From an uncultured Bacteroidales bacterium (GTDB lineage: Bacteria > Bacillota_I > Bacilli_A > ML615J-28 > CAG-698), in assembly GCA_964407835.1 (NCBI GenBank), contig CAYOXB010000004.1, positions 1-60,575 on the forward strand: a DNA stretch of 60,575 nt, given 5' to 3'. The translations under genes and the position numbers were made by a program. A model generated the notes under the pieces. It saw only the letters and a program-made list of their open reading frames with translations, had not been told where the DNA came from and did not search any database. Below are positions 18,881 through 44,219 of the stretch, in pieces. The stretch's first letter is position 1; each line of letters opens with the position of its first letter.

Positions 18881-19005
18881 AATAATCTCCTTTTTCAAAC
18901 TATCTAATTTTACTATATTTTAAGAAATAATTCAACTCTATTGTTTAAATCAAAAATTATTCATAGAAAATATAATTTATGGTATAATAATACTTGAGGT
19001 AATTT

Positions 19006-28400: not shown

Positions 28401-30102
28401 TGCTATTAGAGTTGACTATTCTACAGTTCATGGAGTATTTAATATTAAAAATAACCATTTTGAAGATATTAAATATAATGGCTTCTACGTAAGATCATAT
28501 GTAGTTGCTCATAGTCCAATTGTATTCAATATTGAAGGCAATGTATTCAAAAACATTGGTGAAGCAGGAAAAACTGAAACTCCTGCATCTACAAGAATTG
28601 GTGCAATTGCAACTGCTGGATATGGCGAAACAAATAGCGCAACTTTCAATATTCGTTTCAACCATTTTGAAGATAACGTTAATTATATTACCCTAAGAGC
28701 TAATGTAACTGATGTTGATACATGGGCAACAAAACCTCATGAATGGAAAGCAATTATTGAATATAACTCATTCATCGATGCTGATGAAGTAACAAATTAC
28801 TTCATTAATGCTGCTAATGCAGCAGATACTGCGCAAACAAATGTTAATAATGTTGTGTTTGATAATAACTTCTATGGTAAAGATGCTGATACAAAAGCTG
28901 ATATTCTACCAAGTCAATTTGATATTTATGATGAAGAAAATAGTAACTTAACTGTTTATGAAACATTAGAAGAATTACTAGAAGCTATTGCAACTTATAA
29001 TGAATTTATTAAACCTATCTATGTAGACCCTGCTCTTGCAGACTTAGAAGATGACGATCCAGTAATGTATAATGGGATTGAACTCAAATATGGAGTTAGT
29101 GCATTTAGTAATCTTGCAGATGCTGTTGATGCAGCAGAAGCAGGTAAAATAATTATCCTTGCTCCTGGTTTACATCAAGCAGGTAATGTTAATGTAGTAG
29201 TAGACAATCTAACACTTGTAGGACCTAATAAGGGTATTAATCCAATTACAGGAACTAGAGCAGAAGAAGCTATTATCGAAGCTAAAGTTATTATCGGTGA
29301 AGGTGTTAAAAACTTCGAAGTTAATGGTATAACACTTAACTATAAAAACACTGGTAGCTATTTTATTGCTCATGCAAATGGTAAAATGGACGGATTTAAA
29401 TTCCTTTATAATATAATCGAAGGTTCACAAGGTGGTGGCGATGCAGCTCCACTTCGTTTCTTCCAAGGTAGTGCAGCTGTTGGTAATAAAAACTTTAATA
29501 TAAGTTTCAATATTATTAGAAATGTTGGTGCTGATAGAGGAATTAGAATTGCTCATATTGAAAACTTCCATGTGGAAGGAAACTTATTTGAAAAACTTAC
29601 AACTGATGCTATTCGTCTTAATGATAATAGTGGAAGTGTAACTGGTGAGTTTTATTTGATCAATAATACGTTTAAAGATATTGGTCAATTTGCAGTTTTC
29701 CAAGGTGCAACTAGTATAGAGAAAATGGTATTTACAGGAAATACATTTGATAATATGGGTACACATTACTCTGGTGGTGCTTTAAGTATTAGAGCACTTA
29801 CTCTACCTGCTGCTGGAACTGAAATTTTAATTGCTAATAATACATTTAAAGATAGTCAATCAGCAATTAGAATTGATCATGCTCTAGCTGCACAAGCTGC
29901 TAATATTGTTATTGAGAATAATGAATTCTTTGCTACATATGCATACATATATAATAATACTTTAGCTGGTGAAGTATCTACATTGTTCAAACTTAATAAT
30001 AAAGTTTACGATGCAGGTGGCGAATTATTAGACCTTGAAGAGCTTACAACTGGAGCTTCTCCAATGATTAAAAATGCATTTGTTGGAGATGCGTTTGAAT
30101 AA
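25483..30102 (+). CDS. Surface lipoprotein with four Big_2 Ig-like domains and three right-handed beta-helix (pectin lyase-like) modules
   Basis: Lipobox LVSC; four W(T/S)SS...ATVD..G.V....G...IT repeats; three modules each opening with AF...(D)A....I....G.(Y/H); repeated I.I.NN.F rungs. Confidence 0.8.
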   Translation: MQKNNKIIFLILMFFLFVGLVSCTKEVSLKFAKEEIEIVVGEEKELDLTVVGEDVILEWTSSDFSIATVDQDGKVVGVKVGEVTITVTAKDTDAKATITVIVKAKPEVVPTGVIVMNIPDEVKVGDVVTLSVTVLPEGASQEVVWSSSNPAVATVDATGKVSFLAVGEVVITAASKAKLTVKRDVPFSVQIPDPTEVVISSKTGLYEVLLSATLQMEATVHPDLADQTVIWSVNDSNIATITEAGLLQPKQVGTVIVSATSAVDDEVFGTKTITILRPPGTSLELTAPYKVLQIEEEMQLVTRILPELADQEVIFASTNSDVLTVDSTGKVVAVAVGTATITATAKTNPNVGKAVLVTVVEKVAEVDHDNYYVSAGVKNLSRYEKFVHDSEDYYVGINAFADFDEIDSLEEGTTIFVGEGIYIGSLVINKDNVSIISENELKDPNKVVFEKQAVLQGKFTLAADVKNVRFAGLSFTNTGRIENVSTLDGFTFENNFIYATQPAGKVWAPGRDYNLTGFITLWKMQQKVDNIVIENNKFENVPEVVIMIGNTDGVSIKNNTFTNFGQDAIRMDGGHNYNETTITGNRFVNDEVSGTNAIYFRSLGVNATADNRHMIEIADNYFENIGTDQDYSGAISAQGYQEWGVTINIHHNEFVSCYDYIWLRNNATAANHAANSWVANINFNVFLGLPENYYFRSKNGTTDTEETNPTLANLDANFFGDLDGNQIDLTDEDILALFIDVASLNYSFTSIEAMTALFVDLAWEGKADQEEILYDGMLLSYGKTAFSKIMDALEAVEPRGIIIVLPGEYDEEVEITKPVNMMTLNSNFNPVEDDSRFLDLAETSTVITKVWYLNNVSNVTIKGFTFTGEARVRQYGAENSAGLRGFVFENNYAHDTNAPTIAWKQTAYASYGISTKYDTTMPGFLSLAQFASWMYDFKIINNKFSNVLDTNIVLICTSGVTITGNEFIGSDRDAIRVDYSTVHGVFNIKNNHFEDIKYNGFYVRSYVVAHSPIVFNIEGNVFKNIGEAGKTETPASTRIGAIATAGYGETNSATFNIRFNHFEDNVNYITLRANVTDVDTWATKPHEWKAIIEYNSFIDADEVTNYFINAANAADTAQTNVNNVVFDNNFYGKDADTKADILPSQFDIYDEENSNLTVYETLEELLEAIATYNEFIKPIYVDPALADLEDDDPVMYNGIELKYGVSAFSNLADAVDAAEAGKIIILAPGLHQAGNVNVVVDNLTLVGPNKGINPITGTRAEEAIIEAKVIIGEGVKNFEVNGITLNYKNTGSYFIAHANGKMDGFKFLYNIIEGSQGGGDAAPLRFFQGSAAVGNKNFNISFNIIRNVGADRGIRIAHIENFHVEGNLFEKLTTDAIRLNDNSGSVTGEFYLINNTFKDIGQFAVFQGATSIEKMVFTGNTFDNMGTHYSGGALSIRALTLPAAGTEILIANNTFKDSQSAIRIDHALAAQAANIVIENNEFFATYAYIYNNTLAGEVSTLFKLNNKVYDAGGELLDLEELTTGASPMIKNAFVGDAFE

Positions 30103-31183: not shown

Positions 31184-31212
31184 TTGCTATTGTTTTAAAA
31201 ATGATGTATAAT
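31184..31212 (+). promoter_or_regulatory. Sigma-70-type promoter of the ncRNA
   Basis: TTGCTA (31184-31189)-17 bp-TATAAT (31207-31212), placing +1 near 31219. Confidence 0.7.
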
Positions 31213-31218
31213 TAAATT

Positions 31219-31387
31219 GCCTGGGGAGTTCGGGTTTTTATATAATTGCGGACCCAACAAATCTGATTTAGGAAGTTGAGGCATATTTAAGAGTGAACGC
31301 TTACTTGTAAGAATCCCAATAATATGCAAAAAGAGACTACCACCCTGTGAAAACGAGGTTTCACATTGTAATATCGGCTTCCTGGGT
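31219..31387 (+). ncRNA. ssrS: Probable 6S RNA
   Basis: GC-richer ORF-free island with its own promoter and terminator. 5' CCTGGGGAGTTCG pairs with 3' CGGCTTCCTGGG; GGACC pairs with GGTTT; there is an unpaired central region; GGaAGTT/GACTaCC and GCATATT/AATATGC form the apical stem. Folded by eye, no covariance model run. Confidence 0.72.
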
Positions 31388-31407
31388 TAAATTAAAAACA
31401 AGAAATT

Positions 31408-31442
31408 AAGACATTCTAGTTATTAACTAGGATGTCTTTTTA
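31408..31442 (+). terminator. Intrinsic terminator of the ncRNA
   Basis: AGACATTCTAGT-tatta-ACTAGGATGTCT followed by a T tract. Confidence 0.8.
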
Positions 31443-31514: not shown

Positions 31515-31543
31515 TTGAAAGCGCTTCGCTAATGGTATATAAT
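31515..31543 (+). promoter_or_regulatory. Promoter of the glutamate mutase operon with an overlapping LacI/cre-like site
   Basis: TTGAAA-17 bp-TATAAT; TGAAAGCGCTTC overlaps the -35 and spacer. Confidence 0.6.
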
Positions 31544-31578: not shown

Positions 31579-31992
31579 GTGGATACAATAGTTATTGGTG
31601 TAATCGGAGCTGATGTACACGCAGTAGGAAATAAAATAATTGATTATACTCTAACAAGAGAAGGCTTTAATGTTGTTAATGTTGGGGTATTATCTACTCA
31701 AGAAGACTTTATTAATGCTGCAATAGAAACTAACGCAAAAATGATTCTTGTTTCATCTTTATATGGCCATGGGGAGATTGATTGCCGTGGTATGAGAGAA
31801 AAATGTATTGAGGCTGGACTTGATGATATTCTTTTATATGTTGGTGGTAATATTGTTGTTGGAAAACAAGAGTTTTCTGATGTAGAAATGAGATTTAAGA
31901 AAATGGGATTTGATCGTGTTTTCCCTCCAGGAACAACGATTGATTCTGTTATTGAAATAATAAAACAGGATTTAGAAAACCTTAGTGACTAA
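31579..31992 (+). CDS. glmS: Glutamate (methylaspartate) mutase S subunit, B12-binding
   Basis: [11 protein letters not shown] (DxHxxG), [17 protein letters not shown]; GTG start after SD ggagga. Also called mamA/mutS; not the glucosamine synthase. Confidence 0.93.
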
Positions 31993-33382
31993 ATCTTTAA
32001 AGACTAATTATTTATTAGTTGATATAGGTTCAACCTATACGAAACTAACAGCAGTTAATTTAGAAGAAGAAGATATTATTGCTACTAGTCAAGCACATAC
32101 AACTATTTTGGATGATGTTCATTTAGGTTATCAAGAAGCATTGGATTTACTTTTAAAAGATTTACCAAAAGATGTAGTGTTTGAAAAGATTTTTGCTTGT
32201 TCATCTGCTGCAGGTGGCTTAAAGATGGCAGCAATAGGACTTGTTGAAGAATTAACTGTTGAAGCAGCTAAAAGAGTTTGCCTTAATTCTGGTGGGAAGG
32301 TCGATTTAATTTTTTCTCACTACCTAACAAAATCAGATATAGAAAAAATTAAAGATGGTAAAATTGATATTATTCTTTTGGCTGGTGGAACTGATGGTGG
32401 AAATAGCGAAGTAGTTATTCATAATTTAGGAATGCTTGCAAGAGCAGGAGTAAAAATTCCTATTATTTATGCTGGTAATAAATCAGCACAAGATGAAGTT
32501 TTAGAAATATTTGAAGAATATAAACTAAATGGTCATATATGTGCCAATGTAATGCCGAAGCTCAATGAACTTAATATAGATCCTGCTAAGGAAGTTATTA
32601 AGAAAATATTTTTAGAAAATATTATTGAAGCTAAAGGTATTAAAGTTTTCTCAAAGAAAATTAATGGTGATTTACTACCTACGCCACAAGTAGTATTAAA
32701 AGCTATTGAGCTTTTAAGTGTTGGTTATTTAGGTGAAGTTGGATTTGGAGATAGTGTTTTAATTGATATAGGTGGTGCAACTACTGATATTTATTCGATT
32801 TCTAAAGGACTTCCAAAAACACCAAATACAATAGTTCAAGGCTTAGAGGAACCTTTTGCGAAGAGGACAGTAGAAGGAGACCTTGGAATGCGCTATTCTG
32901 CTGGTGGAATAGTTGATAGTCTAAATAAAGAAAGCTTAGAAAAATATAAACTAGCTGGAATTGATTTAGTAAGAGCAGCGGAGTTTCGTTTAAATAATGT
33001 TGAATTTATTCCAAACTCTAGTGAAGAGAAAAAGATAGATACTGTACTTGCAAAGATAAGTGCAGATACAGCCTTTTCTAGACATGTAGGAACTACTGAG
33101 GCTATGTATACTCCGGTTGGAGTTATATATGCTCAAAGAGGTAAGGACCTAAGTGAGACAAAAACAATAATTGGTACTGGTGGAGTTATTATTAAAAATG
33201 ACGAACCAGTTGAAATATTAAAAGAGATTCAAACTAATCTAAATAAACCATTAGAACTTAGACCAAAGGATGCTAACTTTTATTTAGATAGTGATTATAT
33301 TCTTTCCGCAATGGGACTTTTAAGTTTTGAAGAACCAATGCTCGCTTTAAAAATAATGAAAAAGAGAATTAAGAGAATTTAG
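31985..33382 (+). CDS. glmL: Glutamate mutase reactivating factor (GlmL/MutL-type, actin-like ATPase)
   Basis: [43 protein letters not shown]. Confidence 0.9.
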
Positions 33383-33384
33383 AT

Positions 33385-34842
33385 ATGGAACTAAGAAATA
33401 AAAAATGGACTGAAGAACAATTTTTAAAAGAAAGAGAAAAGGTCTTAGCTACTTGGCCAACTGGCCAGTCACCACTGCTTAATTTAGATATAGCTGTTGA
33501 AAGACTTAAAAAGATTCCAGCAGAGAAAAACTTTGCTATTCAGCTCAACCTTGCAAAAGAAGATGGAAGAACACAAATTCAACCACGAGCAGGTGTTGCT
33601 GTTTTAGATGATCATATAGAATTACTCCAGCATTTACAAAATGCGGGGGCTGATTTCCTTCCTTCCACAATCGACTCCTATACGCGTCAAAACCGTTATC
33701 AAGAAGCAGAAAATGGAATAAATGAAAGTATTAAGTTTAAGAGAAGTTTACTTAATGGTTTTCCAGCTGTTAACTACGGAGTTGAAGGTTGTGGAAAAGT
33801 CCTAGATGCTGTAAGTGTACCGCTACAAGCAAGACATGGAACACCGGACTCTAGACTTTTAGCGGAAATTATTCACGCTGCTGGTTGGACTTCTAATGAA
33901 GGTGGAGCACTTAGTTATAATGTTCCCTATGCAAAAGCTGTGTCTATTGAAGATACAATTAAGTATTGGCAGTATTGTGATCGTTTAGTTGGCTATTATG
34001 AGGAAAGAGGGGTTAAAATAAACCGTGAACCTTTTGGCCCGCTAACTGGAACTTTAGTTCCTCCAGTAATTTCTAATACTGTTGCAATTATTGAAACACT
34101 ACTTGCTGCAGAGCAAGGAGTTAAAAATATAACTGTTGGTTATGGGCAGGGCGGAAACTTAATTCAAGATGTTGCTGCTGTTAATGCACTAAGAGACCAA
34201 ACAGAAGAGTACTTAGAAAAATACGGATACAAGGATATGGAAATATCAACTGTATTCCACCAATGGATGGGTGGTTTTCCTGCTGATGAAGCGAGTGCTC
34301 TAGGTTTAATATCAATGGCTTCAACTGTTGCTGCTTTAAGTAAGGCTACTAAAATGATTACAAAGACTCCATATGAGTCTATTGGTGTGCCTACAAAAGA
34401 AGCAAATGCAATGGGAATAAAAGCATCTAAATTTGTTGTAACACTTCTTCGTGATCAAAAGTATGAAGAAAGTGCTAAGTATAAAGAAGAATATAACCAA
34501 ATCAAAAAAGAGGTTAATTCTATAATGGATCATATCTTTATTTTGGGTGAAGGTGATTTGGCTGTTGGGACAGTTAAAGCTTTTGACCAAGGAATTCTAG
34601 ATGTGCCTTTTGCACCTAGTAGATATAATGCGGGTAAGGTTCTTCCTGCTAGAGATATTGATGGTTGTATAAGAATCTTAGAATTTGGAAATATTGGCTT
34701 TAGCGAAGAAATAAAAGAATTTCATCGTAAGAAAATATTAGAACGTGCAAAATCAGAAGGTAGAGAAGTTTCATTCCAATTAACTGTTGATGATGTATAT
34801 GCTGTTAGTAATGGTAAATTAATTGGAAATTCAAATAAATAA
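33385..34842 (+). CDS. glmE: Glutamate (methylaspartate) mutase E subunit
   Basis: [60 protein letters not shown]. Confidence 0.95.
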
Positions 34843-34863
34843 TTAAAGAAAGAGAATTAAAAA

Positions 34864-36111
34864 ATGAAAATTGTAGATGTTATTTTATCAAAATCCTATA
34901 CTGGATTTTACTTTGATGATCAAAAAGCGATTAAAGCTGGAGCTAGCCAAGACGGTTTAGTGTATTTAGGAAAACCAATGACTGAAGGTTTTACTCAAAT
35001 TAGAATGCCTGGTGAGGCTATTTCTATTCAACTTGTTTTAGAAGATGGGTTAGTTGCTAAAGGAGACTGTGCAGCTGTACAATATAGTGGTGCAGGTGGA
35101 AGAGATCCTTTATTTTTAGCTGATGACTTCATTCCATTTATTGAAAAGAATTTAGTTCCGCTTTTAATTGGAGAAGATGTAAAAGATTTTAGAAAGTTAG
35201 CTGAAAAATACGATAATTTAGTTGTTGATGGGAAAAAACTTCATACAGCTATTCGCTATGGTGTTACTCAAGCATTACTTAGTGCAACAAGTTTAGTTAA
35301 AAGAAAAACAATGGCTGAAGTTGTACGAGAAGAATATAATATAAAAGATGACAAGTATGAAGCAGTTGATGTATTTACCCAAAGCGGTGATGATCGTTAT
35401 TTGAATGCTGATAAAATGATTTTAAAAGAAGTAGATGTACTTCCTCATGCTTTAATTAATCATGTGGAAACAAAATTAGGTCAACAAGGTGAAATTTTAG
35501 TTGCCTATGTAGAAAAATTAAATAAAAGAGTTAGAAGCTTAAGAAGTAATCCTAACTATATGCCAATTTTCCATATCGATGTTTATGGAACTGTTGGAAT
35601 AATCTTTGATAATAATGTTAGAAAAATTGTTGATTACTTTAAAATTTTAGAAGAAGCTGCAAAACCATTTAAACTAAGAATTGAAGGTCCAGTTGATGAT
35701 GGTACAAAAGAAGGTACAATGGCTCTTTTAAGAGATATTACTGCACTTTTAGATAAAGAAGGAGTTAATGTTGAAGTTGTTGCTGATGAATGGTGTAACA
35801 ATTTAGAAGACATTAAATACTTTGCAGATAACAGAGCTGGTCATATGCTCCAAATCAAAACTCCTGACTTAGGTGGAGTTAATAATACTATTGAAGCAAT
35901 TATGTACTGTAATGAAAAGAAAATTGGTGCTTATTGCGGTGGCACTTGTAATGAAACAAATATTTCAACTGAAATATCTGTTAACCTGGCTATAGGTGCA
36001 AAAGCTAAGCAAATACTAGGTAAACCAGGTATGGGTGTTGATGAAGCGATTATGCTTGTAAGAAACGAGATGAACCGCGTCTTAGCTATAGCAAACAAAA
36101 GAGGAAAGTAA
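34864..36111 (+). CDS. mal: Methylaspartate ammonia-lyase (beta-methylaspartase)
   Basis: GFYFDDQKAI, GDCAAVQYSGAGGRDPLF, HTAIRYG, LPHALIN, HIDVYG, VADEWCN, QIKTPDLG, GGTCNET. Confidence 0.95.
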   Translation: MKIVDVILSKSYTGFYFDDQKAIKAGASQDGLVYLGKPMTEGFTQIRMPGEAISIQLVLEDGLVAKGDCAAVQYSGAGGRDPLFLADDFIPFIEKNLVPLLIGEDVKDFRKLAEKYDNLVVDGKKLHTAIRYGVTQALLSATSLVKRKTMAEVVREEYNIKDDKYEAVDVFTQSGDDRYLNADKMILKEVDVLPHALINHVETKLGQQGEILVAYVEKLNKRVRSLRSNPNYMPIFHIDVYGTVGIIFDNNVRKIVDYFKILEEAAKPFKLRIEGPVDDGTKEGTMALLRDITALLDKEGVNVEVVADEWCNNLEDIKYFADNRAGHMLQIKTPDLGGVNNTIEAIMYCNEKKIGAYCGGTCNETNISTEISVNLAIGAKAKQILGKPGMGVDEAIMLVRNEMNRVLAIANKRGK

Positions 36112-36112
36112 A

Positions 36113-36370
36113 ATGAAGATTGGCGTTTGTGGCAGCTTAGAATCAAATGATTGCTTAATTACTGTAGAAGAAAGCGATAAACTAGAAATTATAATTGAAA
36201 GTATTGTTTATGATTTCTTTGCTGAACAAATTGAAGATGTAATAAAAAACACCTTAATAGAGCAAGGAATTGCTCAAATTAAGGTTTTTTGTAATGATAA
36301 GGGTGCACTTGATTATACGATTAAATCAAGGCTAGAAGTAGCAATTAAAAGAATGAGGGAGCAAGTATGA
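36113..36370 (+). CDS. citD: Citrate-lyase-type acyl carrier protein (gamma subunit)
   Basis: CGSLESND (prosthetic-group Ser) and DKGALDYTIKSRL. Confidence 0.9.
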   Translation: MKIGVCGSLESNDCLITVEESDKLEIIIESIVYDFFAEQIEDVIKNTLIEQGIAQIKVFCNDKGALDYTIKSRLEVAIKRMREQV

Positions 36371-37209
36371 GAAGATCACTATTATTCATTCCTGCAAATA
36401 ATCCAGGAATGATGCAAAATGCAAAACTTTTCAATGCCGATAGTATTATTTTTGATCTCGAAGATGCAATTAGTATGAGTGAAAAAGATAGTGCTAGAAG
36501 TATTTTAAAAAACTATTTAAACACTTATGACTTTAACTTTGAAGTTATCGTTAGAGTTAATGATCTTGACTCAGTTTATTTCTTAAAAGATTTAAATGAA
36601 ATAGTTCTTCCTAGTCTTGATACTATAATGCTACCTAAGGCTAGAGCAAGTCACTTTAAAAAATTAGATGAAATACTAACAAAACTAGAAACTGAGAAAA
36701 AATTAAAAAAGAAAATTAAAGTTATTCCGATTGTTGAGCTTGCTATATCAGTTTTAGAAATAGAAGAAATAGCAAAAGCAAAACGAGTTGATGGTATTTT
36801 ACTTGGTGCTGAGGACCTATCTAGTGATATGGAGTTTGAAAGAACTCTAAAAGGTGATGAGATATTTTACCCAAGAACTAGACTTGCTTATGTTGCTAGA
36901 GCATATGGTATAGATGCAATTGACACTCCATTTACTAATGTTAGAGATAATGATGGTTTAGTTAAAGATGCAACATATGCAAAATCTCTTGGTTTACAGG
37001 CAAAAGCTGCAATTCATCCAAATCAAGTTAGATTTATTAATGAAGTATTTTCACCATCTAAAAAACAAATTGAATTTGCTTTAAAAGTTGAACTTGCTTC
37101 TAAAAATAATAAAGGTGCATTTAGTCTTGATGGGCAAATGATCGATAAACCGATAATTGAAAGAAATAAAAAGATTCTTGAAAAAGCAAGAAAGTTTGAT
37201 TTGCTATGA
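36367..37209 (+). CDS. citE: Citrate/citramalate-lyase-type beta subunit (acyl-CoA lyase)
   Basis: RRSLLFIPANNP, FDLEDA, VRVN, LGAEDL, AIDTP, AIHPNQ; ATGA overlap with citD. Confidence 0.9.
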   Translation: MRRSLLFIPANNPGMMQNAKLFNADSIIFDLEDAISMSEKDSARSILKNYLNTYDFNFEVIVRVNDLDSVYFLKDLNEIVLPSLDTIMLPKARASHFKKLDEILTKLETEKKLKKKIKVIPIVELAISVLEIEEIAKAKRVDGILLGAEDLSSDMEFERTLKGDEIFYPRTRLAYVARAYGIDAIDTPFTNVRDNDGLVKDATYAKSLGLQAKAAIHPNQVRFINEVFSPSKKQIEFALKVELASKNNKGAFSLDGQMIDKPIIERNKKILEKARKFDLL

Positions 37210-38699
37210 TGAAATTACCAAAAGGTTTTAAAGGATTTACAACAAGCGAAGCTTATAAGCAAATAGAATATAAAAAAGTTGCTACTATTGAAGCTAGCAA
37301 TAAAGACAATAAGGTTTTAAAAAGTATTAGTGAAGCATTTGATAAGCTAAAAATTGTAGATGGAATGACTTTGTCTTTCCACCATCACTTAAGAAATGGT
37401 GATTTTGTCTTAAACTATTGTTTAGCGGAAATAAAAAAAAGAAATTTAAAAAACATTACTTTAGCACCTAGTTCAATCTTTCCTGTACACGAAGCTTTAA
37501 GTGAACTCATAATTAATAAAAATGTTACAACGATTTATACTAACTATTTAAATGGTAGTGTTGCAAATACAATTAATGATGGTTTTCTAGAAGGTTTACT
37601 TATTATGGATACTCACGGGGGAAGAAGTGTAGCAATCGAGGCTGGAGAAATTGTAATTGATGTAGCTTTTATTGCAACTCCTACAGCTGATAAACTTGGC
37701 AATGGCCACGGCAGAAGTGGTAAAAGCGCATGTGGGTCTTTAGGATATGCTATTCCTGATATGTTATACGCGAAGAGTAAAGTAGTAGTAACTGATAATT
37801 TAGTTGATAGTGTAGAAAACCCTGAAATAAAAGATAAATATATTGATTATGTTGTAGAGATTGAAGCAATTGGAGACCAACAAAGAATAGTTAGCGGTAC
37901 TACGAAAATTACAACTGATCCAATTGGTTTAAGGATTGCAGAAGATACAGCAAAACTAATTAATGAACTTGGCTTAATAAAAAATGGGTTTTCAATGCAA
38001 ACTGGTGCAGGGGGGACGTCCCTTGCAGTTAGCGATTTTATTAAAAAAATAATGAAAGAGCAAAATGTAAAGGCTAAATTTGCAAGTGGTGGTATAACTG
38101 GCTATTTTGTAGATATGCTTGAAGAACATTTAGTTGAAGATTTATATGATGTTCAATGTTTTGATTTAGCTGCTGTTAAAAGTTTAGAAAAAAACAAAAA
38201 TCATCATGCAATTAGTGCTTTTGATTATGCTAATCCCTATCATGATCCAGTTGTAAATAAACTTGATTTAGTTATTTTGGGAGCTACTGAAATTGATTTA
38301 AACTTCAATGTCAATGTAACTACAGGATCAAATGGAATTATTATGGGTGGAAGTGGTGGTCATGCAGATACAGCACATGGTGCTGGAGTAAGTATAATTG
38401 TTAGTCCTTTAATTAAGACAAGAATTCCAATCATTAAAGATAGAGTTACTACAATAACTACACCTGGTGAAGATATTGATGTATTTGTAACTGAATATGG
38501 AATTGCAATTAATCCAAAAAGAAAAGATTTACTAAAAAAGATAAAAAATACAAAACTTAAAATAAAAACTATTGAAGAACTCTATAATGAAGCTCATGAT
38601 ATAACATCAATTCCTAAAAAACTAATAAAAACCGATAAAGTAATTGGTTTAGTTAGGTATAGGGATATGAGCATTATCGATTGTATTTATAAAAAGTAG
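37206..38699 (+). CDS. citF: Citrate/citramalate-lyase-type alpha subunit (CoA/ACP transferase)
   Basis: SFHHHLRNGD, THGGR, CGSLGY, QTGAGG, DVQCFD, GGSGGHADTA. Confidence 0.92.
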   Translation: MMKLPKGFKGFTTSEAYKQIEYKKVATIEASNKDNKVLKSISEAFDKLKIVDGMTLSFHHHLRNGDFVLNYCLAEIKKRNLKNITLAPSSIFPVHEALSELIINKNVTTIYTNYLNGSVANTINDGFLEGLLIMDTHGGRSVAIEAGEIVIDVAFIATPTADKLGNGHGRSGKSACGSLGYAIPDMLYAKSKVVVTDNLVDSVENPEIKDKYIDYVVEIEAIGDQQRIVSGTTKITTDPIGLRIAEDTAKLINELGLIKNGFSMQTGAGGTSLAVSDFIKKIMKEQNVKAKFASGGITGYFVDMLEEHLVEDLYDVQCFDLAAVKSLEKNKNHHAISAFDYANPYHDPVVNKLDLVILGATEIDLNFNVNVTTGSNGIIMGGSGGHADTAHGAGVSIIVSPLIKTRIPIIKDRVTTITTPGEDIDVFVTEYGIAINPKRKDLLKKIKNTKLKIKTIEELYNEAHDITSIPKKLIKTDKVIGLVRYRDMSIIDCIYKK

Positions 38700-38706
38700 G
38701 TAGAAT

Positions 38707-39675
38707 ATGGAATTTAAACTAGCTTTACTAGATTCTGAAAAAGAATTAATAAAAGAATTTTTAAATAAATTTTCACTTAGCTATGATCAAGATATTGATT
38801 ATAGCTTATATGTCGTTATTGACGAGAAAATTATTGGAACAATTTCTGCTAGTTTAAATATAATAAAAGCTTTTGCGGTTGATTTAGATTATCGTGGAAG
38901 TCTTGCAAGTACATTAATAAGTAGAGCAATTAATGAACTTTATAGAAGGGGTTATACGTTTTACCAAGTATATACAACACCTAATAATAAAGCTATGTTT
39001 GAAGCGATGAATTTCTATGAAATTATATCTTCAGAAAATGTAAGTTTACTAGAATCTAAAAATAGAGATATTATGGCTGAGTTAATTAGACTTAAAGATA
39101 AATATAAAGTAAATAGTAGTGATGTTGCTGCAATTGTAATGAATTGTAATCCTTTCACAAACGGTCATTTATATTTAATAACTGAAGCTAGTAAAAAACA
39201 TGAACAAGTTATTGTTTTTTTACTAGAAGAAGAAAAATCGATGTTTAGTTTTGCTTCTAGGTATGAGATGGTTTTAAAAGGTGTAGCTAGTCTAGATAAT
39301 GTTGTAGTAATACCTTCTAGTAATTATTTAATCTCAAGCCTTACTTTTCCAACTTACTTTCTAAAACAAGAAGACGAGAAAACATTTGAAGAAGCTAAAC
39401 TTGATGCTTTAATTTTTGAAAAATACTTTATTCCGATATTCAATATTAAAAAAAGATATCTTGGCAGTGAAGAAGATATCGTTACTAGTAAATATAATAA
39501 AGTTTTAAAAGAATATTTTGGTGATTTTATTGAAATAATTCCAAGAATTAAAAATAATGATAAATATATAAGTGCATCAATTGTAAGAAAGTATTTAGAA
39601 AACAAGGAATTTGAAAAGATTAAAGAAATAGTTCCTCTTACAACATATAGTTTTTTGAAGAGTAAATATGAATAA
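38707..39675 (+). CDS. citC: [Citrate lyase] ligase (acetate:SH-lyase ligase)
   Basis: N-terminal GNAT-like region; IVMNCNPFTNGHLYL, YLISSLTFPTYFLK, ISASIVR. Confidence 0.9.
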   Translation: MEFKLALLDSEKELIKEFLNKFSLSYDQDIDYSLYVVIDEKIIGTISASLNIIKAFAVDLDYRGSLASTLISRAINELYRRGYTFYQVYTTPNNKAMFEAMNFYEIISSENVSLLESKNRDIMAELIRLKDKYKVNSSDVAAIVMNCNPFTNGHLYLITEASKKHEQVIVFLLEEEKSMFSFASRYEMVLKGVASLDNVVVIPSSNYLISSLTFPTYFLKQEDEKTFEEAKLDALIFEKYFIPIFNIKKRYLGSEEDIVTSKYNKVLKEYFGDFIEIIPRIKNNDKYISASIVRKYLENKEFEKIKEIVPLTTYSFLKSKYE

Positions 39676-40924
39676 AGAAATCTTAATAGCAAGAGAACAA
39701 AGAAGTAAGCATATTCTTGAAGAATCAAGAAGTAATAAAGTTATTGTTATTAAAGCAAATATTGCTGGGGAAAATAAAAACTTATATTATAGTTCATTAA
39801 TTATTAAAACATTTCTAAAAGAAATAAAGAAGAGAATAGAATATAATGAAGTTGAACATTATTCAAGTTTAGATGGTAATTATTATTTAGTTACACTTTC
39901 TGGAAATTTAAAAGAAATTAAAAGAGTTTTAATAGACTTAGAAGACAATCATTTACTTGGAAGACTAGTTGACCTTGATTTATATTATGAAGGTAAGCAA
40001 ATTTCACGTAGAGACCTTGGAAATAGTTTTAGAAAATGTTTAATATGTAGTGATGATGCTATAATTTGTATGAAAACAAATAAACATAGTTTAGCTGAGG
40101 TCTTAAACAAAAGTGAACTCTTAGTTCATAACTATTTAAGTGAAATTATAACTACAAATTTAATTGAAGCTATTACCCTCGAAGCATCATTAGATCCTAA
40201 ATTTGGTCTTGTTACCAAGACCTCAAAAGGGTCACACTCGGATATGGACTTTGATTTACTTATGAAATCAAGAGACATAATAGTTCCTGATTTAGGTAGG
40301 ATGTTCTTTTTTGGAATAAATAATAACTTAGATGAAGCGTTCAAACTTAGCCGCAAACTTGGTATTTCTACAGAAGAAAGAATGTTTATGGTAACAAATG
40401 GTGTTAATACATATAAGGGTTTAATATTTCTACTTGGTATTGTTCTTACAACAATGGGTTATTTATTTAAAAATAAAAAACTAAGTTTATATGAAAGCAT
40501 AAAAGAACTTGGTAGGAATTTAGTAGCTGAACTAGATAGTGATTTAAATACATTTGGTGGTTATGCTTATAAAGAATATGGCTTTTTAGGTATAAGGGGC
40601 GAAGTTGCTAGTGGCCTAGTGAGCTTAAGAGATGTTACTAGAGATCTAAATAGCTTTAGTGATGAAGAATTAACTCTAGCTTTGATTAAGTTAATTGGGG
40701 CAAGTGAAGATACTGTATTACTAAGGCGCTCAGGTAGTTTGGGAAAATATGAGTTTTATAAAAACTTAGTAGTTAACATTAAAGAATATAATCTAGAAAA
40801 AATAGAAGAAGTAACTAGAATTTGTGTTGAAAACAATATTAGTTTTGGCGGAAGTGCAGATTTACTAGCAACTGCTATATTTATTAAACTAATGGAAAAG
40901 GATTTGGTTATAAAATATGGATAA
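39668..40924 (+). CDS. citXG: Fused holo-ACP synthase CitX / triphosphoribosyl-dephospho-CoA synthase CitG
   Basis: N-half: LIAREQR...LEDNHLLGRLVDLD...RKCLIC (CitX). C-half: PKFGLV...GSHSDMD, NTYKGLIF, GIRGE, SFGGSADLL (CitG). Confidence 0.88.
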   Translation: MNKEILIAREQRSKHILEESRSNKVIVIKANIAGENKNLYYSSLIIKTFLKEIKKRIEYNEVEHYSSLDGNYYLVTLSGNLKEIKRVLIDLEDNHLLGRLVDLDLYYEGKQISRRDLGNSFRKCLICSDDAIICMKTNKHSLAEVLNKSELLVHNYLSEIITTNLIEAITLEASLDPKFGLVTKTSKGSHSDMDFDLLMKSRDIIVPDLGRMFFFGINNNLDEAFKLSRKLGISTEERMFMVTNGVNTYKGLIFLLGIVLTTMGYLFKNKKLSLYESIKELGRNLVAELDSDLNTFGGYAYKEYGFLGIRGEVASGLVSLRDVTRDLNSFSDEELTLALIKLIGASEDTVLLRRSGSLGKYEFYKNLVVNIKEYNLEKIEEVTRICVENNISFGGSADLLATAIFIKLMEKDLVIKYG

Positions 40925-41693
40925 AAGACCAATTGGTGTATTTGATTCGGGAATTGGTGGAGTTAATGTTTTAAAAAGTTTAATAGAAGAGTTTCCTCAT
41001 GAAGACTTTATATATGTTGCAGATACTCTAAATGTACCTTATGGAACTAAATCAGCAAATGAAATTAAAAACTTAGTTGATAGAATTACTAAGTATTTAA
41101 TGAGTAATAATGCAAAGGCAATTGTTATTGCTTGTAATACAGCAACTACGCAAGCTGAACATTTATTTAATTTAGATAATTTAGTAGTTCTTGGTGTTAT
41201 TAAGCCAACAGCAGAAGATGCTTTAAAAAATTCAAAAAACATTTGTGTTCTAGCAACTAATGCAACAATTAAAGCAGGTGTATATCAAAATATTTTCCTT
41301 AAAGAAGGTAAAAATGTATTTCCTATTATGGGAAGTGAACTTGTCGATGCAATTGAAGCTGGCGAGATTGACAATGAATTATCCCATACATTAGTATATA
41401 ATCATTTAAAAGATTTAGTGAATGAAAAAATAGATACTATTGTACTGGGGTGTACTCATTTTGCTTTATATGAAAGAGAAGTAAAAAGTGTTTTAAAAGA
41501 TGCAAGAGTTGTTAATTCTGGCAAACCTACCAGTAAAGAATTAAGAAAAGTTTTAAGCAGAAAGAATTTACTTAATAAGAGTAAAGAAAAAGGAAGAGTT
41601 GACTTAAAGACAACTCTAGATAAAGAAAAGTTTGAAAAACAAATAGCAATATTTGATTTAAAATATAATAGTGTAGAAAAAATTAATATTTAA
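40917..41693 (+). CDS. murI: Glutamate racemase (catalytic motifs intact)
   Basis: IGVFDSGIGG, PYG, IACNTAT (Cys73), VLGCTHF; 8-bp overlap with citXG. Confidence 0.93.
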   Translation: MDKRPIGVFDSGIGGVNVLKSLIEEFPHEDFIYVADTLNVPYGTKSANEIKNLVDRITKYLMSNNAKAIVIACNTATTQAEHLFNLDNLVVLGVIKPTAEDALKNSKNICVLATNATIKAGVYQNIFLKEGKNVFPIMGSELVDAIEAGEIDNELSHTLVYNHLKDLVNEKIDTIVLGCTHFALYEREVKSVLKDARVVNSGKPTSKELRKVLSRKNLLNKSKEKGRVDLKTTLDKEKFEKQIAIFDLKYNSVEKINI

Positions 41694-41718
41694 AAAGAGC
41701 AGAAGTCTGCTCTTTTTT
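41692..41718. terminator. Bidirectional intrinsic terminator
   Basis: AAAAAGAGCAG-aagt-CTGCTCTTTTT between murI and the convergent hydratase genes. Confidence 0.85.
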
Positions 41719-42268
41719 ACTTTCTATTTGTATATTTACTTATACCTTCGCTTAATAAGTCATTTCCATGACTATCATAGGTTACAAAAGCTGTGAAATC
41801 TTCAACTTCAAGTTTATGGATTGCCTCAGCTCCAAGTTCAGGATAAGCAACAACTTCAGCTTTTTTGATTGATTTACTTATTAATGCTGCAGCACCGCCA
41901 ATAGCTGATAAATAAAGACCACCGTATTTTTTAAGTAATTCTTTAAATTCATCATCTCTTGGTCCTTTACCGATTGAAACTTTTATACCTTCTTTCATCA
42001 GGGCTTCTGCATATGGGTCCATTCGATAACTAGATGTTGGTCCAGCTGAGCCTATTGCTTGATGAGGTTTTGCGGGTGAAGGCCCTACATAGTAAATAAT
42101 AGTGTTTTGTGTTTCTATAGGTAGTTTTTCACCACTTGCTATTGTTTCAACCATTTTTTTATGGGCCGCATCTCTAGCGGTGTAAATTGTTCCTGTTATT
42201 GAAACTGTATCTCCTGCTTTTAGTTTCTTTATTTGTTCATCTGTAATTGGTGTTGTAAGTTTTATCAT
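41717..42268 (-). CDS. Class I fumarate hydratase / tartrate dehydratase family, beta subunit (candidate mesaconase)
   Basis: GTIYTARDAAH, IYYVGPSP, GPTSSYRM, IGKG, GGAAAL, EAIHKLEVEDF; ATG 42268 preferred (SD aggtga). Confidence 0.88.
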   Translation of the reverse strand: MIKLTTPITDEQIKKLKAGDTVSITGTIYTARDAAHKKMVETIASGEKLPIETQNTIIYYVGPSPAKPHQAIGSAGPTSSYRMDPYAEALMKEGIKVSIGKGPRDDEFKELLKKYGGLYLSAIGGAAALISKSIKKAEVVAYPELGAEAIHKLEVEDFTAFVTYDSHGNDLLSEGISKYTNRK

Positions 42269-42277
42269 AGTTATCAC

Positions 42278-43123
42278 CTAAATTGTAATTTCTTTATGTC
42301 TAGCAGCATGACACTGGATGTTTATTGCAACAGGAAGACTTGCAATATGGCATGGATAGGAGTTAACTTTAACTGCTAGAGCAGTTGTAGTTCCACCAAA
42401 CCCCATTGGTCCTACACCTAGATCATTTATTTCTTTTAGTAATTCTCTTTCAAGCTCGCGGTCTAACGGATTAGCTGCTTCATCATTAATTGGTCTAAAG
42501 ATAGCCTCTTTCGCAATTATAGCTGCTTTTTCTAGATTTCCGCCTATACCAATTCCTACTATTAATGGTGGACATGGTTTACCACCAGCACTAAAAATAG
42601 TATCAAGGACTAGTTTTTTAACTCCTTCTTTGCCATCTGCAGGAATTAGCATCTTCACAAGTGACATGTTTTCACTACCACCACCCTTAGGTGCAACTGA
42701 AATTCTTAGTTTATCACCTTCAGTTATTGATGTGTGAATAATAGCCGGGGTATTATCTTTTGTATTTATTCTTTCAAGCGGATGATTTACAACTGATTTA
42801 CGTAAATATCCTTCTGAGTAAGCTTCTCTAACTCCTTGATTAATTGCATCATAAATATTACCTTCGAAAATAATTTGATTACCAATTTCGATAAAAATAA
42901 CAACAATTCCAGTATCTTGACACATTGGTACGAATTCTCTTCTAGCAATTAAATCATTTTCTTCAATTTGTTTTAAGACTGTTTTACCTATTGAAGACTT
43001 TTCATCCTTAATGGCTTCTCTAATTTTTGTTAGAACATCTTCATCTAAATTATAGTTAGCATCTAATAATAGATCTTTAACTGCTTTTGTTACTTCATTT
43101 AAATTTAACTTTCGCATATTCAT
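42278..43123 (-). CDS. Class I fumarate hydratase / tartrate dehydratase family, alpha (Fe-S) subunit (candidate mesaconase)
   Basis: PMCQDTG, LRKSVV, NTKDNTP, KGGGSEN, KPCPP, GPMGFGG, CHIASLPVAINIQCHAARH. Confidence 0.9.
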   Translation of the reverse strand: MNMRKLNLNEVTKAVKDLLLDANYNLDEDVLTKIREAIKDEKSSIGKTVLKQIEENDLIARREFVPMCQDTGIVVIFIEIGNQIIFEGNIYDAINQGVREAYSEGYLRKSVVNHPLERINTKDNTPAIIHTSITEGDKLRISVAPKGGGSENMSLVKMLIPADGKEGVKKLVLDTIFSAGGKPCPPLIVGIGIGGNLEKAAIIAKEAIFRPINDEAANPLDRELERELLKEINDLGVGPMGFGGTTTALAVKVNSYPCHIASLPVAINIQCHAARHKEITI

Positions 43124-43418
43124 CTCCCAAATAAATTCTAATTACATTATATCACTTTTTGGTAGTTTATGTAATAACAAACTTCTTTATCTTCTTTTAC
43201 TACTTTTTAAGCCTAAATTTAAGTTTATAGGGCTTTTAAATTGGGATGTAAAATTAGTCATGCTTACTATTAAAAACGCTTCAAGGGCAATTTTAAGCCT
43301 TATTATTAGATTATAGAGCTAGTAGTTAAGAATAATAAACAATAAAACATTTTCTTAAAAAAATATGATAGCAGAAATAATAATCTTATGGTAAAATATA
43401 ATAAGTGAGGTAGTAATA

Positions 43419-44219
43419 ATGATTAAAAAAGCGATTGGGATTTTAGATAGTGGCTTTGGAGGTACTTTCATTTTGGAAGAACTTGCAAAGTACTATAAAA
43501 ATGAAAGATTTATTTATTTAAATGATTTAAAGCATTATCCATTTTATAATCGTCCTGAAGGTGATGCTCTTAATATTATTAAAAGTCATATTGATTTACT
43601 TCTGAAAGAAGATATTAAATTATTAATTGTTTTAAGTGATATTATTGTAGATATTGCTTTTGATTATTTACAAGAATTTAATATTCAAGTAATTAATATT
43701 GTAGATTTGCTTATTAATTATGTAAATAAAAACTATGAAAACAAAAATATTTGTCTTTTTGGGAAAACTGAAGTAATTGAAGCTAATCTATATCAAAAGA
43801 ATTTTAAGTATAATAGGCTTTATAATATTCCAAGTGAAGATTTAGAGTTATTTATCTTACAAAAGCAAACTAAAACATCACAATCTTTTAAAGCTGTTCA
43901 AGTAGCATTTAATCAAGTAAGAAAGAGATCAATTGATTGTATTGTTGCTTCTAGTCCTTATTTAATTGAGCTTAATACTGAATTAAAAGAACATTTGGAG
44001 TTTAATGAAATAACAAATTTAAAAGATATCATTATAGAAGATATTAACGAAAGAAGATATTTCCTTAATCCTAAGGGTAGGGGAAGTATTAATATTTTAA
44101 GTAATTTAGAAAAAAAAGAGTTTAGTAAACTCATTAAGTTTAAAAAACTTAAATATGATTATATAGATATTGAATATGACCAAAGGAAAAAAAGAGCAAA
44201 ACTTAATAAAGGTTTATAG
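43419..44219 (+). CDS. Glutamate racemase-like protein lacking both catalytic cysteines
   Basis: IGILDSGFGG and YP retained; ACNT replaced by LSDI and GCTH by SSPY; ORF is full length. Confidence 0.8.
   Translation: MIKKAIGILDSGFGGTFILEELAKYYKNERFIYLNDLKHYPFYNRPEGDALNIIKSHIDLLLKEDIKLLIVLSDIIVDIAFDYLQEFNIQVINIVDLLINYVNKNYENKNICLFGKTEVIEANLYQKNFKYNRLYNIPSEDLELFILQKQTKTSQSFKAVQVAFNQVRKRSIDCIVASSPYLIELNTELKEHLEFNEITNLKDIIIEDINERRYFLNPKGRGSINILSNLEKKEFSKLIKFKKLKYDYIDIEYDQRKKRAKLNKGL

Follow-up and report, generated by a model that had tools for sequence, protein, structure and literature searches.

We found that the window, a 60,575-nucleotide stretch of DNA, very probably carries a native and intact operon for B12-dependent glutamate catabolism by the methylaspartate route, the host being an Acholeplasmataceae-type bacterium, uncultured and low in GC, in which TGA is a stop codon. 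The cluster comprises 12 intact genes at positions 31579–43123 (ORF coordinates checked), with all 12 assignments backed by NCBIfam and Pfam; ten lie on the + strand in the order glmS-glmL-glmE-mal-citD-citE-citF-citC-citXG-murI, and two, encoding a class I Fe-S hydro-lyase, on the − strand. From glmS to murI the successive spacings are −8, 2, 21, 1, −4, −4, 7, −8 and −8 bp, so that the overlaps or gaps of at most 21 bp described in an initial annotation of this DNA hold at exact ORF coordinates. The convergent junction between murI and the hydro-lyase pair measures 23 bp, and the two genes of that pair abut (0 bp). The locus is organised like an operon, with closely packed genes, one promoter-like site and one terminator common to both units.

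The first four genes, all on the + strand, encode glutamate mutase, its accessory protein and methylaspartase. GlmS, the B12-binding sigma subunit of the mutase (31579..31992), scores 220 bits against NF002612 (cut-off 110) and 210 bits against TIGR01501, matches PDB 1BE1/1CCW (E = 9e-58), and contains the DxHxxG motif in the form DVHAVG. It is followed by glmL (also mutL; 31985..33382), for the mutase accessory/reactivating protein (NF040745, 578 bits, cut-off 475; PF13941), and by glmE (33385..34842), for the catalytic epsilon subunit (TIGR01503, 748 bits, cut-off 390), residues 1-482 of which match chain B of PDB 1CCW/1CB7 (E = 1e-217) and which keeps R66, R100, R149, E171, Y177 and Y181. 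The product of mal (34864..36111), 3-methylaspartate ammonia-lyase, scores 575 bits against TIGR01502 (cut-off 286), matches PDB 1KCZ (E = 2e-172) and retains Q172, H194, D238, E273, D307, Q329, K331, T360 and C361. The matches of glutamate mutase and methylaspartase to solved structures extend over nearly the full length of the proteins, and the catalytic residues of GlmS, GlmE and Mal agree with those in the C. cochlearium and C. tetanomorphum structures.

Five lyase genes and murI continue the + strand unit. The citD-like gene for the acyl-carrier subunit of a (citra)malate lyase (36113..36370) scores 75.6 bits against TIGR01608 (cut-off 63.5), and Ser11 of CitD, within an LES motif, is invariant across 60 orthologues. 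The citE-like beta subunit, an acyl-ACP lyase (36367..37209; PF03328, 164 bits), reaches 243 bits against TIGR01588, whose cut-off is 443, and is thus no equivalog of citrate lyase beta; its relatives in the PDB are lyases of the malyl-CoA and citramalyl-CoA type, and it is probably a citramalyl-ACP lyase. The citF-like alpha subunit, an acetyl-ACP:carboxylate transferase (37206..38699; TIGR01584, 554 bits, cut-off 501), matches PDB 2HJ0 (E = 2e-130), and the citC-like ligase, which acetylates the thiol of the ACP prosthetic group (38707..39675; PF08218, 199 bits), scores 236 bits against TIGR00124, under the cut-off of 262. That CitE and CitC fall below the citrate-lyase equivalog cut-offs is to be expected of a related but distinct lyase, and we infer that the CitDEF lyase is specific for citramalate. 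A citX-citG fusion (39668..40924; PF03802 at residues 3-155, PF01874 at residues 165-406) scores 108 bits against TIGR03124 in its citX part (cut-off 105) and 162 bits against the citrate-lyase equivalog model in its CitG part (cut-off 272); it is predicted to make triphosphoribosyl-dephospho-CoA and attach it to the ACP. The operon's last gene, murI (40917..41693), encodes a glutamate racemase (TIGR00067, 188 bits, cut-off 147) with both catalytic cysteine motifs, ACNTA at Cys73 and GCTH at Cys179.

On the − strand lie mesB (41717..42277; NF005310, 251 bits, cut-off 238; PF05683) and mesA (42278..43123; NF004885, 406 bits, cut-off 276; PF05681), encoding the beta and alpha subunits of the hydro-lyase, a putative mesaconase. 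MesA matches PDB 7XKY (E = 2e-63), its Cys68, Cys184 and Cys271 are invariant across 28 orthologues, and mesAB adjoins the cluster in about 27 other loci; the “fumarase pair” of the initial annotation is best read as a mesaconase (MesAB) of putative hydratase specificity. The annotated arrangement, a convergent class I fumarase pair with one terminator, is recovered: the entire convergent gap is occupied by a palindromic hairpin resembling a bidirectional intrinsic terminator (41692..41717, both strands; AAAAAGAGCAGAAGTCTGCTCTTTTT), with an 11-bp stem between an A-run and a T-run. This hairpin is real as a sequence feature and could be read as a terminator on either strand, common to both convergent units. 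Upstream of glmS, which starts with GTG and is preceded by a GGAGGA ribosome-binding site, lies a strong sigma-70-like candidate operon promoter, TTGAAA-17-TATAAT (31515..31543, + strand; 11/12 consensus matches), and a candidate mesAB promoter, ATTACA-18-TATAAT with an extended TG, lies at 43146..43175 on the − strand; both are identified by consensus match only.

As had been proposed, the window encodes an intact candidate enzyme for every step of the methylaspartate route. Conserved catalytic and cofactor residues, together with the family-model and PDB matches, favour a functional pathway. In the pathway we envisage, MurI would convert D-glutamate into the L-glutamate pool, and GlmS and GlmE with adenosylcobalamin would rearrange (S)-glutamate to (2S,3S)-3-methylaspartate, with GlmL keeping the mutase active. 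Mal would then remove ammonia to give mesaconate, which the convergently encoded, two-subunit Fe-S hydro-lyase MesAB would hydrate to (S)-citramalate, and an ACP-dependent CitD/CitE/CitF complex, primed by CitX-CitG and acetylated by CitC, would cleave citramalate to pyruvate and acetate. We infer that the pathway runs in the catabolic direction, and pyruvate would be taken onward to ATP by genes outside the window. No adenosyltransferase, corrinoid transporter or cobalamin riboswitch was found in the 60-kb window, so the B12 supply of the predicted pathway is unproven; beside the cluster, no obvious glutamate transporter was found.

Two other readings of these genes deserve consideration. If citDEFC-XG encoded a genuine citrate lyase and mesAB no more than a fumarase, the region would unite citrate and fumarate metabolism with a glutamate route that is incomplete; CitD, CitF and CitX do lie above citrate-lyase model cut-offs, the NCBIfam name of the pair is fumarate hydratase, and class I fumarases are promiscuous (PMC4682846). 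We nevertheless consider this very unlikely, given that CitE, CitC and CitG all fall short of their equivalog cut-offs, that the lyase genes show translational coupling to mal and lie alongside glmSLE-mal in about 50 loci, in several orders, and that oxaloacetate decarboxylase and citrate carrier genes were not found nearby. The true citrate lyase of E. coli, moreover, is reported to lack citramalate lyase activity (PMC4682846), and the two activities are therefore distinct. Glutamate mutase, methylaspartase and mesaconase are all reversible, and the pathway might instead run backwards, forming glutamate out of pyruvate and acetate, in a host without a TCA cycle. Mollicutes-type genomes mostly lack a route to 2-oxoglutarate, and the operon's murI could in that case provide D-glutamate. 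We find this extremely unlikely, however, as we know of no precedent for a pathway of this kind running in reverse, the lyase equilibrium at physiological concentrations lies toward cleavage, the same cluster is catabolic in Clostridia, and in some relatives a gamma-glutamyltranspeptidase, which releases glutamate, is linked to the cluster.

The host assignment rests on several properties of the window. Its GC content is about 29%, tryptophan is encoded by TGG, and, among the best 120 matches to the housekeeping protein GltX, all named sequences are labelled “Bacilli bacterium” or “Acholeplasmataceae bacterium”, on which grounds we rejected a Clostridia-type backbone; it is worth noting that these taxonomic labels, attached to MAGs, are submitter-assigned. 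Backbone gene order is also common to the window and one relative labelled “Bacilli”/“Acholeplasmataceae”. The earlier characterisation of the genome as Mollicutes-like therefore stands in so far as the host is Acholeplasma/Izemoplasma-like, with TGA as stop and corresponding GltX and GlmE relatives, but the host is not Mycoplasma-like. The host could alternatively be a low-GC member of the Bacilli with a thin peptidoglycan wall rather than a wall-less “Mollicute”, as the presence of an intact MurI that retains its two catalytic cysteines and the label of the nearest relatives (“Bacilli bacterium”, nothing finer) might indicate. We think this rather unlikely: several near GlmE and GltX relatives carry Acholeplasmataceae or Mollicutes labels, the large surface proteins have lipoprotein signal peptides without a C-terminal LPXTG sorting signal, and no further mur, PBP or sortase gene was found in the 60 kb, a small sample of the genome. 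Were the host walled, MurI would be needed for building the wall no less than for catabolism and the “Mollicutes” framing would weaken, while the pathway assignment would be unaffected.

An intact operon native to this Acholeplasmataceae-type host also has to be weighed against a foreign origin, whether artefactual or biological. The sources of its identical proteins place the window in a metagenome assembly, and a clostridial operon might have been mis-joined to a Mollicutes-type backbone. This is almost certainly not the case: a Logan contig from SRR25904991 covers metK, a surface-protein gene, mnmL and the genes from glmS to citC, with protein identities of 98-100%, the order from glmE to trmL is identical in contigs of SRR8925713 and SRR25904989, and composition is uniform along the window. 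A chimeric contig was accordingly rejected, since both cluster junctions recur in independent assemblies of other sequencing runs. Recent horizontal gain from Clostridia or Fusobacteria has in its favour that the pathway is classically clostridial (PMC8473912) and that GlmE sequences labelled Christensenellaceae/Clostridia, 70-73% identical to that of the window, are nested among Bacilli/Mollicutes-labelled sequences, with weak deep support. This nesting makes some kind of ancient between-class transfer likely, judging from the tree; a recent one is very improbable. Codon usage in the cluster equals that of the remaining window (r = 0.995), GC3 likewise matches, contrary to the unusual composition initially claimed, and no mobile-element genes were found flanking the cluster. 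The closest GlmE sequences (87-91% identical) belong to genomes of a like kind, those of the named nearest relatives being labelled Acholeplasmataceae or Bacilli, and in a neighbour-joining tree the window's GlmE groups with L003 and L002 at 100% bootstrap, whereas GlmE of cultured Clostridium (64-66% identical to the window) splits off at 100%. The layout of murI followed directly by convergent mesBA occurs only in the window's group (L010, partly L006, and its own strain, L085/L086), convergent or divergent mesBA being found also in L011, L019, L045 and L051, and the cluster adjoins mnmL and is close to metK in the window and in four Izemoplasmatales loci.

The pathway itself is, as the initial annotation acknowledged, known: the published glutamate-fermentation cluster comprises GlmS, GlmE, MutL, Mal, MesAB, CitDEF, CitCXG and MurI (PMC4682846, Kronen & Berg 2015), and the gene set of the window, murI included, is identical to that of Clostridium tetanomorphum, C. 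tetani and other Firmicutes (PMC4682846, Fig. 4). The window differs from the Clostridium cluster in its Acholeplasmataceae-type Bacilli host, in the fusion of citX and citG, in having no adjacent GntR regulator gene, and in the position of mesAB, which is encoded outside the operon on the other strand, beyond the terminator common to both units, rather than between mal and citD (as in Clostridium, L067). With the CitCDEFXG system of Klebsiella and E. coli it shares the ACP (gamma), transferase (alpha), lyase (beta), ligase and prosthetic-group enzymes, including the conserved prosthetic-group serine of the ACP in CitD, but its beta subunit, ligase and CitG score well under the equivalog cut-offs, its context is glutamate catabolism and its predicted substrate is (S)-citramalate. 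The glm-mal-fumD locus of E. coli O157:H7 likewise links mutase and methylaspartase to a mesaconase of the class I fumarase type (PMC4682846); there the mesaconase is the single-chain FumD, citramalate-cleaving activity was not detected and the fate of (S)-citramalate is unclear (PMC4682846), whereas in the window the putative mesaconase has two subunits and the lyase system is complete.

Among cultured organisms, Mariniplasma anaerobium, Peloplasma aerotolerans and Xianfuyuplasma coldseepsis share low GC and TGA as stop with the window. Published descriptions of Acholeplasmataceae/Izemoplasmatales centre on sugar and nucleic-acid fermentation, and in those of these cultured species we found no mention of glutamate mutase, the methylaspartate pathway or B12; P. 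aerotolerans, the only free-living relative in culture with growth data that we found, did not grow on glutamate (PMC11122141), a comparison of growth data and not of gene content. Genomes with Acholeplasmataceae, Izemoplasmatales or Mariniplasma labels that carry the cluster number in the dozens. Of the 80 related loci, about 50 combine glmSLE, mal, citD, citE and citF in the same order, and most of these 50 also have citC and/or citXG; among the other loci, many are truncated at a contig edge. The unusual host context initially proposed thus holds for the Acholeplasma-type host, but a cluster so widespread in environmental genomes with Acholeplasmataceae/Izemoplasmatales labels is a feature of the lineage and not a one-genome oddity. 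The cultured species named above come from anoxic habitats and are reported to have pyruvate:ferredoxin oxidoreductase, Rnf and hydrogenase modules (PMC11122141); such modules, if present in the window's organism too, could carry pyruvate onward. What is new is therefore the host lineage for a known pathway: the cluster is ordinary, and its native host context mildly new.

The ten genes glmS, glmL, glmE, mal, citD, citE, citF, citC, citXG and murI lie on the forward strand between 31579 and 41693, with spacings in the ORF listing of -8, 2, 21, 1, -4, -4, 7, -8 and -8 bp. The reading frames are exactly those of the initial annotation, and the spacings agree with its description of overlaps or gaps of 21 bp or less from glmS to murI; the position of glmL between glmS and glmE is confirmed, and no cluster gene is truncated or interrupted. 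A candidate promoter (TTGAAA-17-TATAAT, 31515-31543, forward strand) lies upstream of the GTG start of glmS, which has a GGAGGA ribosome-binding site ahead of it. On the reverse strand, the Fe-S hydro-lyase pair mesBA (41717-42277 and 42278-43123) converges on murI, leaving 23 bp to its stop codon, and AAAAAGAGCAGAAGTCTGCTCTTTTT at 41692-41717 occupies the whole of this gap. The sequence folds into a hairpin with an 11-pair stem, preceded by an A-run and followed by a T-run, and therefore has the form of an intrinsic terminator in either direction; as a sequence feature, the proposed single terminator shared by the two convergent units is borne out by this hairpin.

The enzymes that open the route from glutamate are well matched by curated family models and by structures. 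GlmS scores 220 bits against NF002612 (cut-off 110), also passes TIGR01501, and keeps the base-off/His-on DxHxxG cobalamin motif (DVHAVG, aligned to DCHAVG of PDB 1BE1), while GlmL reaches 578 bits against NF040745 (cut-off 475). GlmE, at 748 bits against TIGR01503 (cut-off 390), aligns end to end with the C. cochlearium glutamate mutase (1CCW/1CB7, E = 1e-217), and R66, R100, R149, E171, Y177 and Y181, which include the substrate-binding arginine triad and Glu171, are conserved relative to chain B of 1CCW. Methylaspartase (Mal) scores 575 bits against TIGR01502 (cut-off 286) and aligns with 1KCZ at E = 2e-172, keeping Q172, H194, D238, E273, D307, Q329, K331, T360 and C361; the Mg2+ ligands and the catalytic Lys331 and His194 are thus present in this alignment.

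The genes that follow mal encode an intact CitD, CitE, CitF, CitC and CitX-CitG set, translationally coupled to it, which by name would be a citrate lyase and its accessory proteins. Tested against the citrate (pro-3S)-lyase equivalog models, CitD (TIGR01608, 76 bits, cut-off 63.5, with the LES serine kept), CitF (TIGR01584, 554 bits, cut-off 501) and CitX pass, and the remaining components fall below: CitE, a PF03328 protein, scores 243 bits against TIGR01588 (cut-off 443), the CitC-type ligase 236 bits against TIGR00124 (cut-off 262), and CitG, fused to CitX (PF03802 and PF01874), 162 bits (cut-off 272). We consider a true citrate lyase unlikely, as not all subunits reach the curated scores, and the sub-threshold values of CitE, CitC and CitG fit a related but distinct lyase, for which (S)-citramalate specificity is predicted from these scores together with the gene context. 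The hydro-lyase beta and alpha subunits match NF005310 (251 bits; PF05683) and NF004885 (406 bits; PF05681), and three cysteines of the alpha subunit are invariant in 28 orthologues; we read the pair, MesAB, as a putative mesaconase of the oxygen-sensitive two-subunit type linked to the cluster, with a predicted specificity for mesaconate. MurI passes TIGR00067 (188 bits, cut-off 147) and keeps both catalytic cysteines.

This gene set is that of the glutamate-fermentation cluster published for Clostridia and other Firmicutes, in which Kronen and Berg list GlmS, GlmE, MutL/GlmL, Mal, MesAB, CitDEF, CitCXG and even MurI, and in which the “citrate lyase” genes are regarded as a putative citramalate lyase (PMC4682846); the reaction sequence and energetics of the pathway are covered in Buckel's review (PMC8473912). 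About 50 of 80 related loci keep glmSLE, mal, citD, citE and citF in the order seen here, most of these about 50 also with citC and/or citXG, and the hydro-lyase pair is adjacent to the cluster in about 27 of the 80. Family matches and conserved gene order in related loci thus provide a candidate gene for every enzymatic step, and the initial claim that each step is encoded holds at the level of family models, residues and locus comparison, with an intact candidate for each; substrate specificities and flux we infer from the gene set and its conservation.

The composition and reading of the contig bear on which organism carries this pathway. GC content is 24-34% throughout, about 95% of the window is coding, and reading frames as long as 2469 aa stay open under translation table 11. 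Five genes stop on TGA, four of which (fmt, citD, citE and thyA) run to the end of their family models or close to it, and GlmE has five tryptophans conserved in the clostridial enzyme, all of them encoded by TGG. Together, the long open reading frames, TGA stops and TGG tryptophans indicate the code of Acholeplasma and Izemoplasma, in which TGA is a stop, unlike that of Mycoplasma and Spiroplasma. The housekeeping protein GltX (22618-24075) has relatives of 68-80% identity, and wherever a source is named among its best 120 matches the name is “Bacilli bacterium” or “Acholeplasmataceae bacterium”; one such relative has the same backbone order (fmt, pgpA, methyltransferase, C26 peptidase, sdaA, coaD, ABC transporter, gltX and, further on, metK). 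The nearest named GlmE matches, at 70-91% identity, likewise belong to genomes labelled Bacilli, Acholeplasmataceae or Mollicutes bacterium. The Rfam scan found no rRNA genes in the window, and standard marker genes are too few in 60 kb for placement; an uncultured Acholeplasmataceae-type bacterium is largely supported as the host by the sequence features at hand. The order in question, Acholeplasmatales, counts as Mollicutes at NCBI and falls in the class Bacilli in GTDB. Some records of related loci carry labels at odds with their low GC content or with where they fall in the GlmE tree (L010, CAYPLR010000001.1, as well as L022, L029 and L063; the labels concerned are Bacteroidales, Staphylococcaceae, Coprobacillus and Subdoligranulum), which calls for caution with taxon names on public genomes carrying close homologues.

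A clostridial pathway found in such a host could have been acquired recently or joined to the contig in assembly. GC content, GC3 and codon usage led us to reject recent horizontal transfer: the cluster genes have GC3 values of 0.11-0.21, inside the range of the flanking genes (0.11-0.23), and synonymous codon usage in the cluster and in the rest of the window correlates at r = 0.995. The closest matches to GlmE are in genomes labelled Bacilli bacterium SO_2016_LW2_86 (91%), Acholeplasmataceae AS08sgBPME_462 (87%) and Mollicutes bacterium Phil14 (75%), with many further sources labelled Acholeplasmataceae, Izemoplasmatales or Mariniplasma, and GlmE of cultured Clostridium is only 64-66% identical. 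The cluster is present in an uncultured Mariniplasma (L045). In a neighbour-joining tree the window forms a clade with the related loci L003 and L002 at 100% bootstrap, and Clostridium sensu stricto separates from it with the same support; deeper branching is poorly supported, with 26-67% for how the window relates to gut sequences labelled Christensenellaceae. A chimeric contig is rejected as well, both junctions being reproduced by independent assemblies: a contig from SRR25904991 covers metK to citC, and the stretch from glmE to trmL is covered by contigs from SRR8925713 and SRR25904989. All three runs have contigs encoding proteins identical to those of the window. Neither a Clostridia-type contig nor a chimera, both raised in the initial annotation, therefore accounts for the presence of the cluster here. 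An exact-sequence look-up of MesA gave no match because gene callers had used a shorter start.

Gene layout is consistent with a native cluster. The arrangement of murI followed directly by convergent mesBA recurs in L010 and partly in L006; L085 and L086, independent contigs of the window's own strain, have it too. Convergent or divergent mesBA are also found in four further related loci (L011, L019, L045 and L051). Clostridium- and Christensenellaceae-labelled loci have mesAB co-directional with the operon. The window and L003 both have mnmL directly beside the cluster. Four Izemoplasmatales loci have mnmL on its other side, no more than about 1.3 kb away (less than 100 bp in three), one of them with metK directly upstream. 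This linkage to mnmL and metK suggests that the cluster has long been resident in this branch of the tree.

A pathway of this kind depends on corrinoid supply, and genes nearby offer partial hints. The Rfam scan found no cobalamin riboswitch in the window or seven related loci, where its matches were only 6S RNA, T-box leaders and tRNAs. Within the 60-kb window there is no adenosyltransferase (PduO/CobA homologue) and no recognisable corrinoid or glutamate transporter, and tblastn of five proteins taken from relatives' flanks (PduO, a multi-pass membrane protein, GGT, a DctM-like transporter and a Na/H-exchanger-family protein) gave no match in it. Nor is an extra transporter or regulator universally linked to the cluster, no flanking-ORF family occurring in more than 4 of the 38 loci labelled Bacilli or Mollicutes. 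Four loci labelled Izemoplasmatales, Bacillales or Bacillota carry an adenosyltransferase gene: in three, one for a PduO-type cobalamin adenosyltransferase (PF01923, E = 4e-39) immediately precedes glmS (L013 7547-8095; L047 5671-6183; L060 5063-5554), and in the fourth a PduO homologue lies about 8.6 kb downstream of glmE (L052 20055-20573). Epoxyqueuosine reductase is a cobalamin-dependent enzyme, and a QueG-like gene (46920-47846, forward strand; PF08331, QueG_DUF1730, plus a 4Fe-4S double-cluster domain; TIGR00276 174 bits, cut-off 200) stands 4 kb downstream of the cluster and is followed by trmL; given that dependence, it is a hint that the organism handles corrinoids, and it may encode another corrinoid enzyme close to the cluster. 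In three other loci the gene directly upstream of glmS encodes about 178 aa, apparently a multi-pass membrane protein without a Pfam match (L014 7520-8056; L017 4367-4876; L022 7526-7978); in size and hydrophobicity it would be compatible with a substrate-binding (S) component of an ECF transporter, possibly for corrinoids. Many Bacilli- or Christensenellaceae-labelled loci have gamma-glutamyltranspeptidase genes, often in two copies, and a DctM/CitMHS-like transporter after the cluster (L020 17653-21372; also L022, L035, L018, L025, L026, L028 and L064), which suggests release of glutamate from gamma-glutamyl compounds.

The window has several further features. A C26 (gamma-glutamyl hydrolase-type) peptidase (18224-18898, reverse strand) and a fused alpha/beta L-serine dehydratase (19006-20211, forward strand) are further hints of amino-acid catabolism feeding pyruvate and glutamate. 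Divergent from and beside mesA, a second, divergent glutamate-racemase-like gene (43419-44219, forward strand; 61 bits, below cut-off) has lost both catalytic cysteines, with LSD and ASSP replacing ACNTA and GCTH; its retention in L010 (44% identity) and in L085 and L086 points to a maintained pseudo-enzyme or a new function. Between mnmL and glmS lies a 6S RNA gene (RF00013, 49 bits; 31215-31392, forward strand) with its own promoter-like site (31184-31212) and terminator (31408-31438), and L003, the closest relative, has two tandem copies at the same place (7654-7831 and 7890-8067). Very large surface lipoproteins are predicted at 9727-17136, 25483-30102 and 48497-50128 (forward) and 52474-54549 (reverse): one of 2469 aa carries 17 Listeria-Bacteroides repeats, another of 1539 aa Big_2 domains and a beta-helix, and another, 691 aa long, combines aBig_2 domains with a C39-like peptidase domain. 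All of them begin with a lipobox-type signal peptide, and none ends in an LPXTG motif. In these 60 kb murI is present; lipoproteins lacking LPXTG are compatible with a wall-less cell and do not prove it. The 726-aa product of 5466-7646 (forward strand) is unusual in joining a TMEM164-family membrane domain to an ABC ATPase domain, and the two proteins after it (7649-9259 and 9268-9711) have no confident family match.

Standard annotation plainly recognises the cluster genes, and dozens of public genomes have them. No description of the methylaspartate pathway in Acholeplasma, Tenericutes, Mollicutes or Izemoplasma/Izimaplasma was found in the searchable full-text literature, so its extension to these hosts appears undescribed there. 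The environmental Tenericutes genomic surveys and isolate descriptions examined mention neither glutamate mutase nor B12, and Peloplasma aerotolerans did not grow on glutamate (PMC11122141). The cluster, textbook in content, intact and native, is best classed as a new host lineage for a known pathway, whose well-established biochemistry is unaffected. Classical Mollicutes are sugar, arginine or urea fermenters, and a native, intact radical-B12 amino-acid pathway in the Acholeplasma/Izemoplasma branch would broaden the group's known metabolism, make these organisms depend on community-supplied corrinoids, and point to a combination of glutamate and B12 for the selective enrichment of uncultured members. 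We propose only tentatively the wider reading that free-living environmental Acholeplasmatales/Izemoplasmatales have an old, vertically kept and widespread B12-dependent glutamate fermentation that extends, via the operon racemase, to D-glutamate set free from the walls of dead bacteria. Were it true, “minimal” wall-less bacteria would be corrinoid-dependent amino-acid fermenters recycling dead bacterial biomass in anoxic habitats, a role absent from present descriptions of the group.
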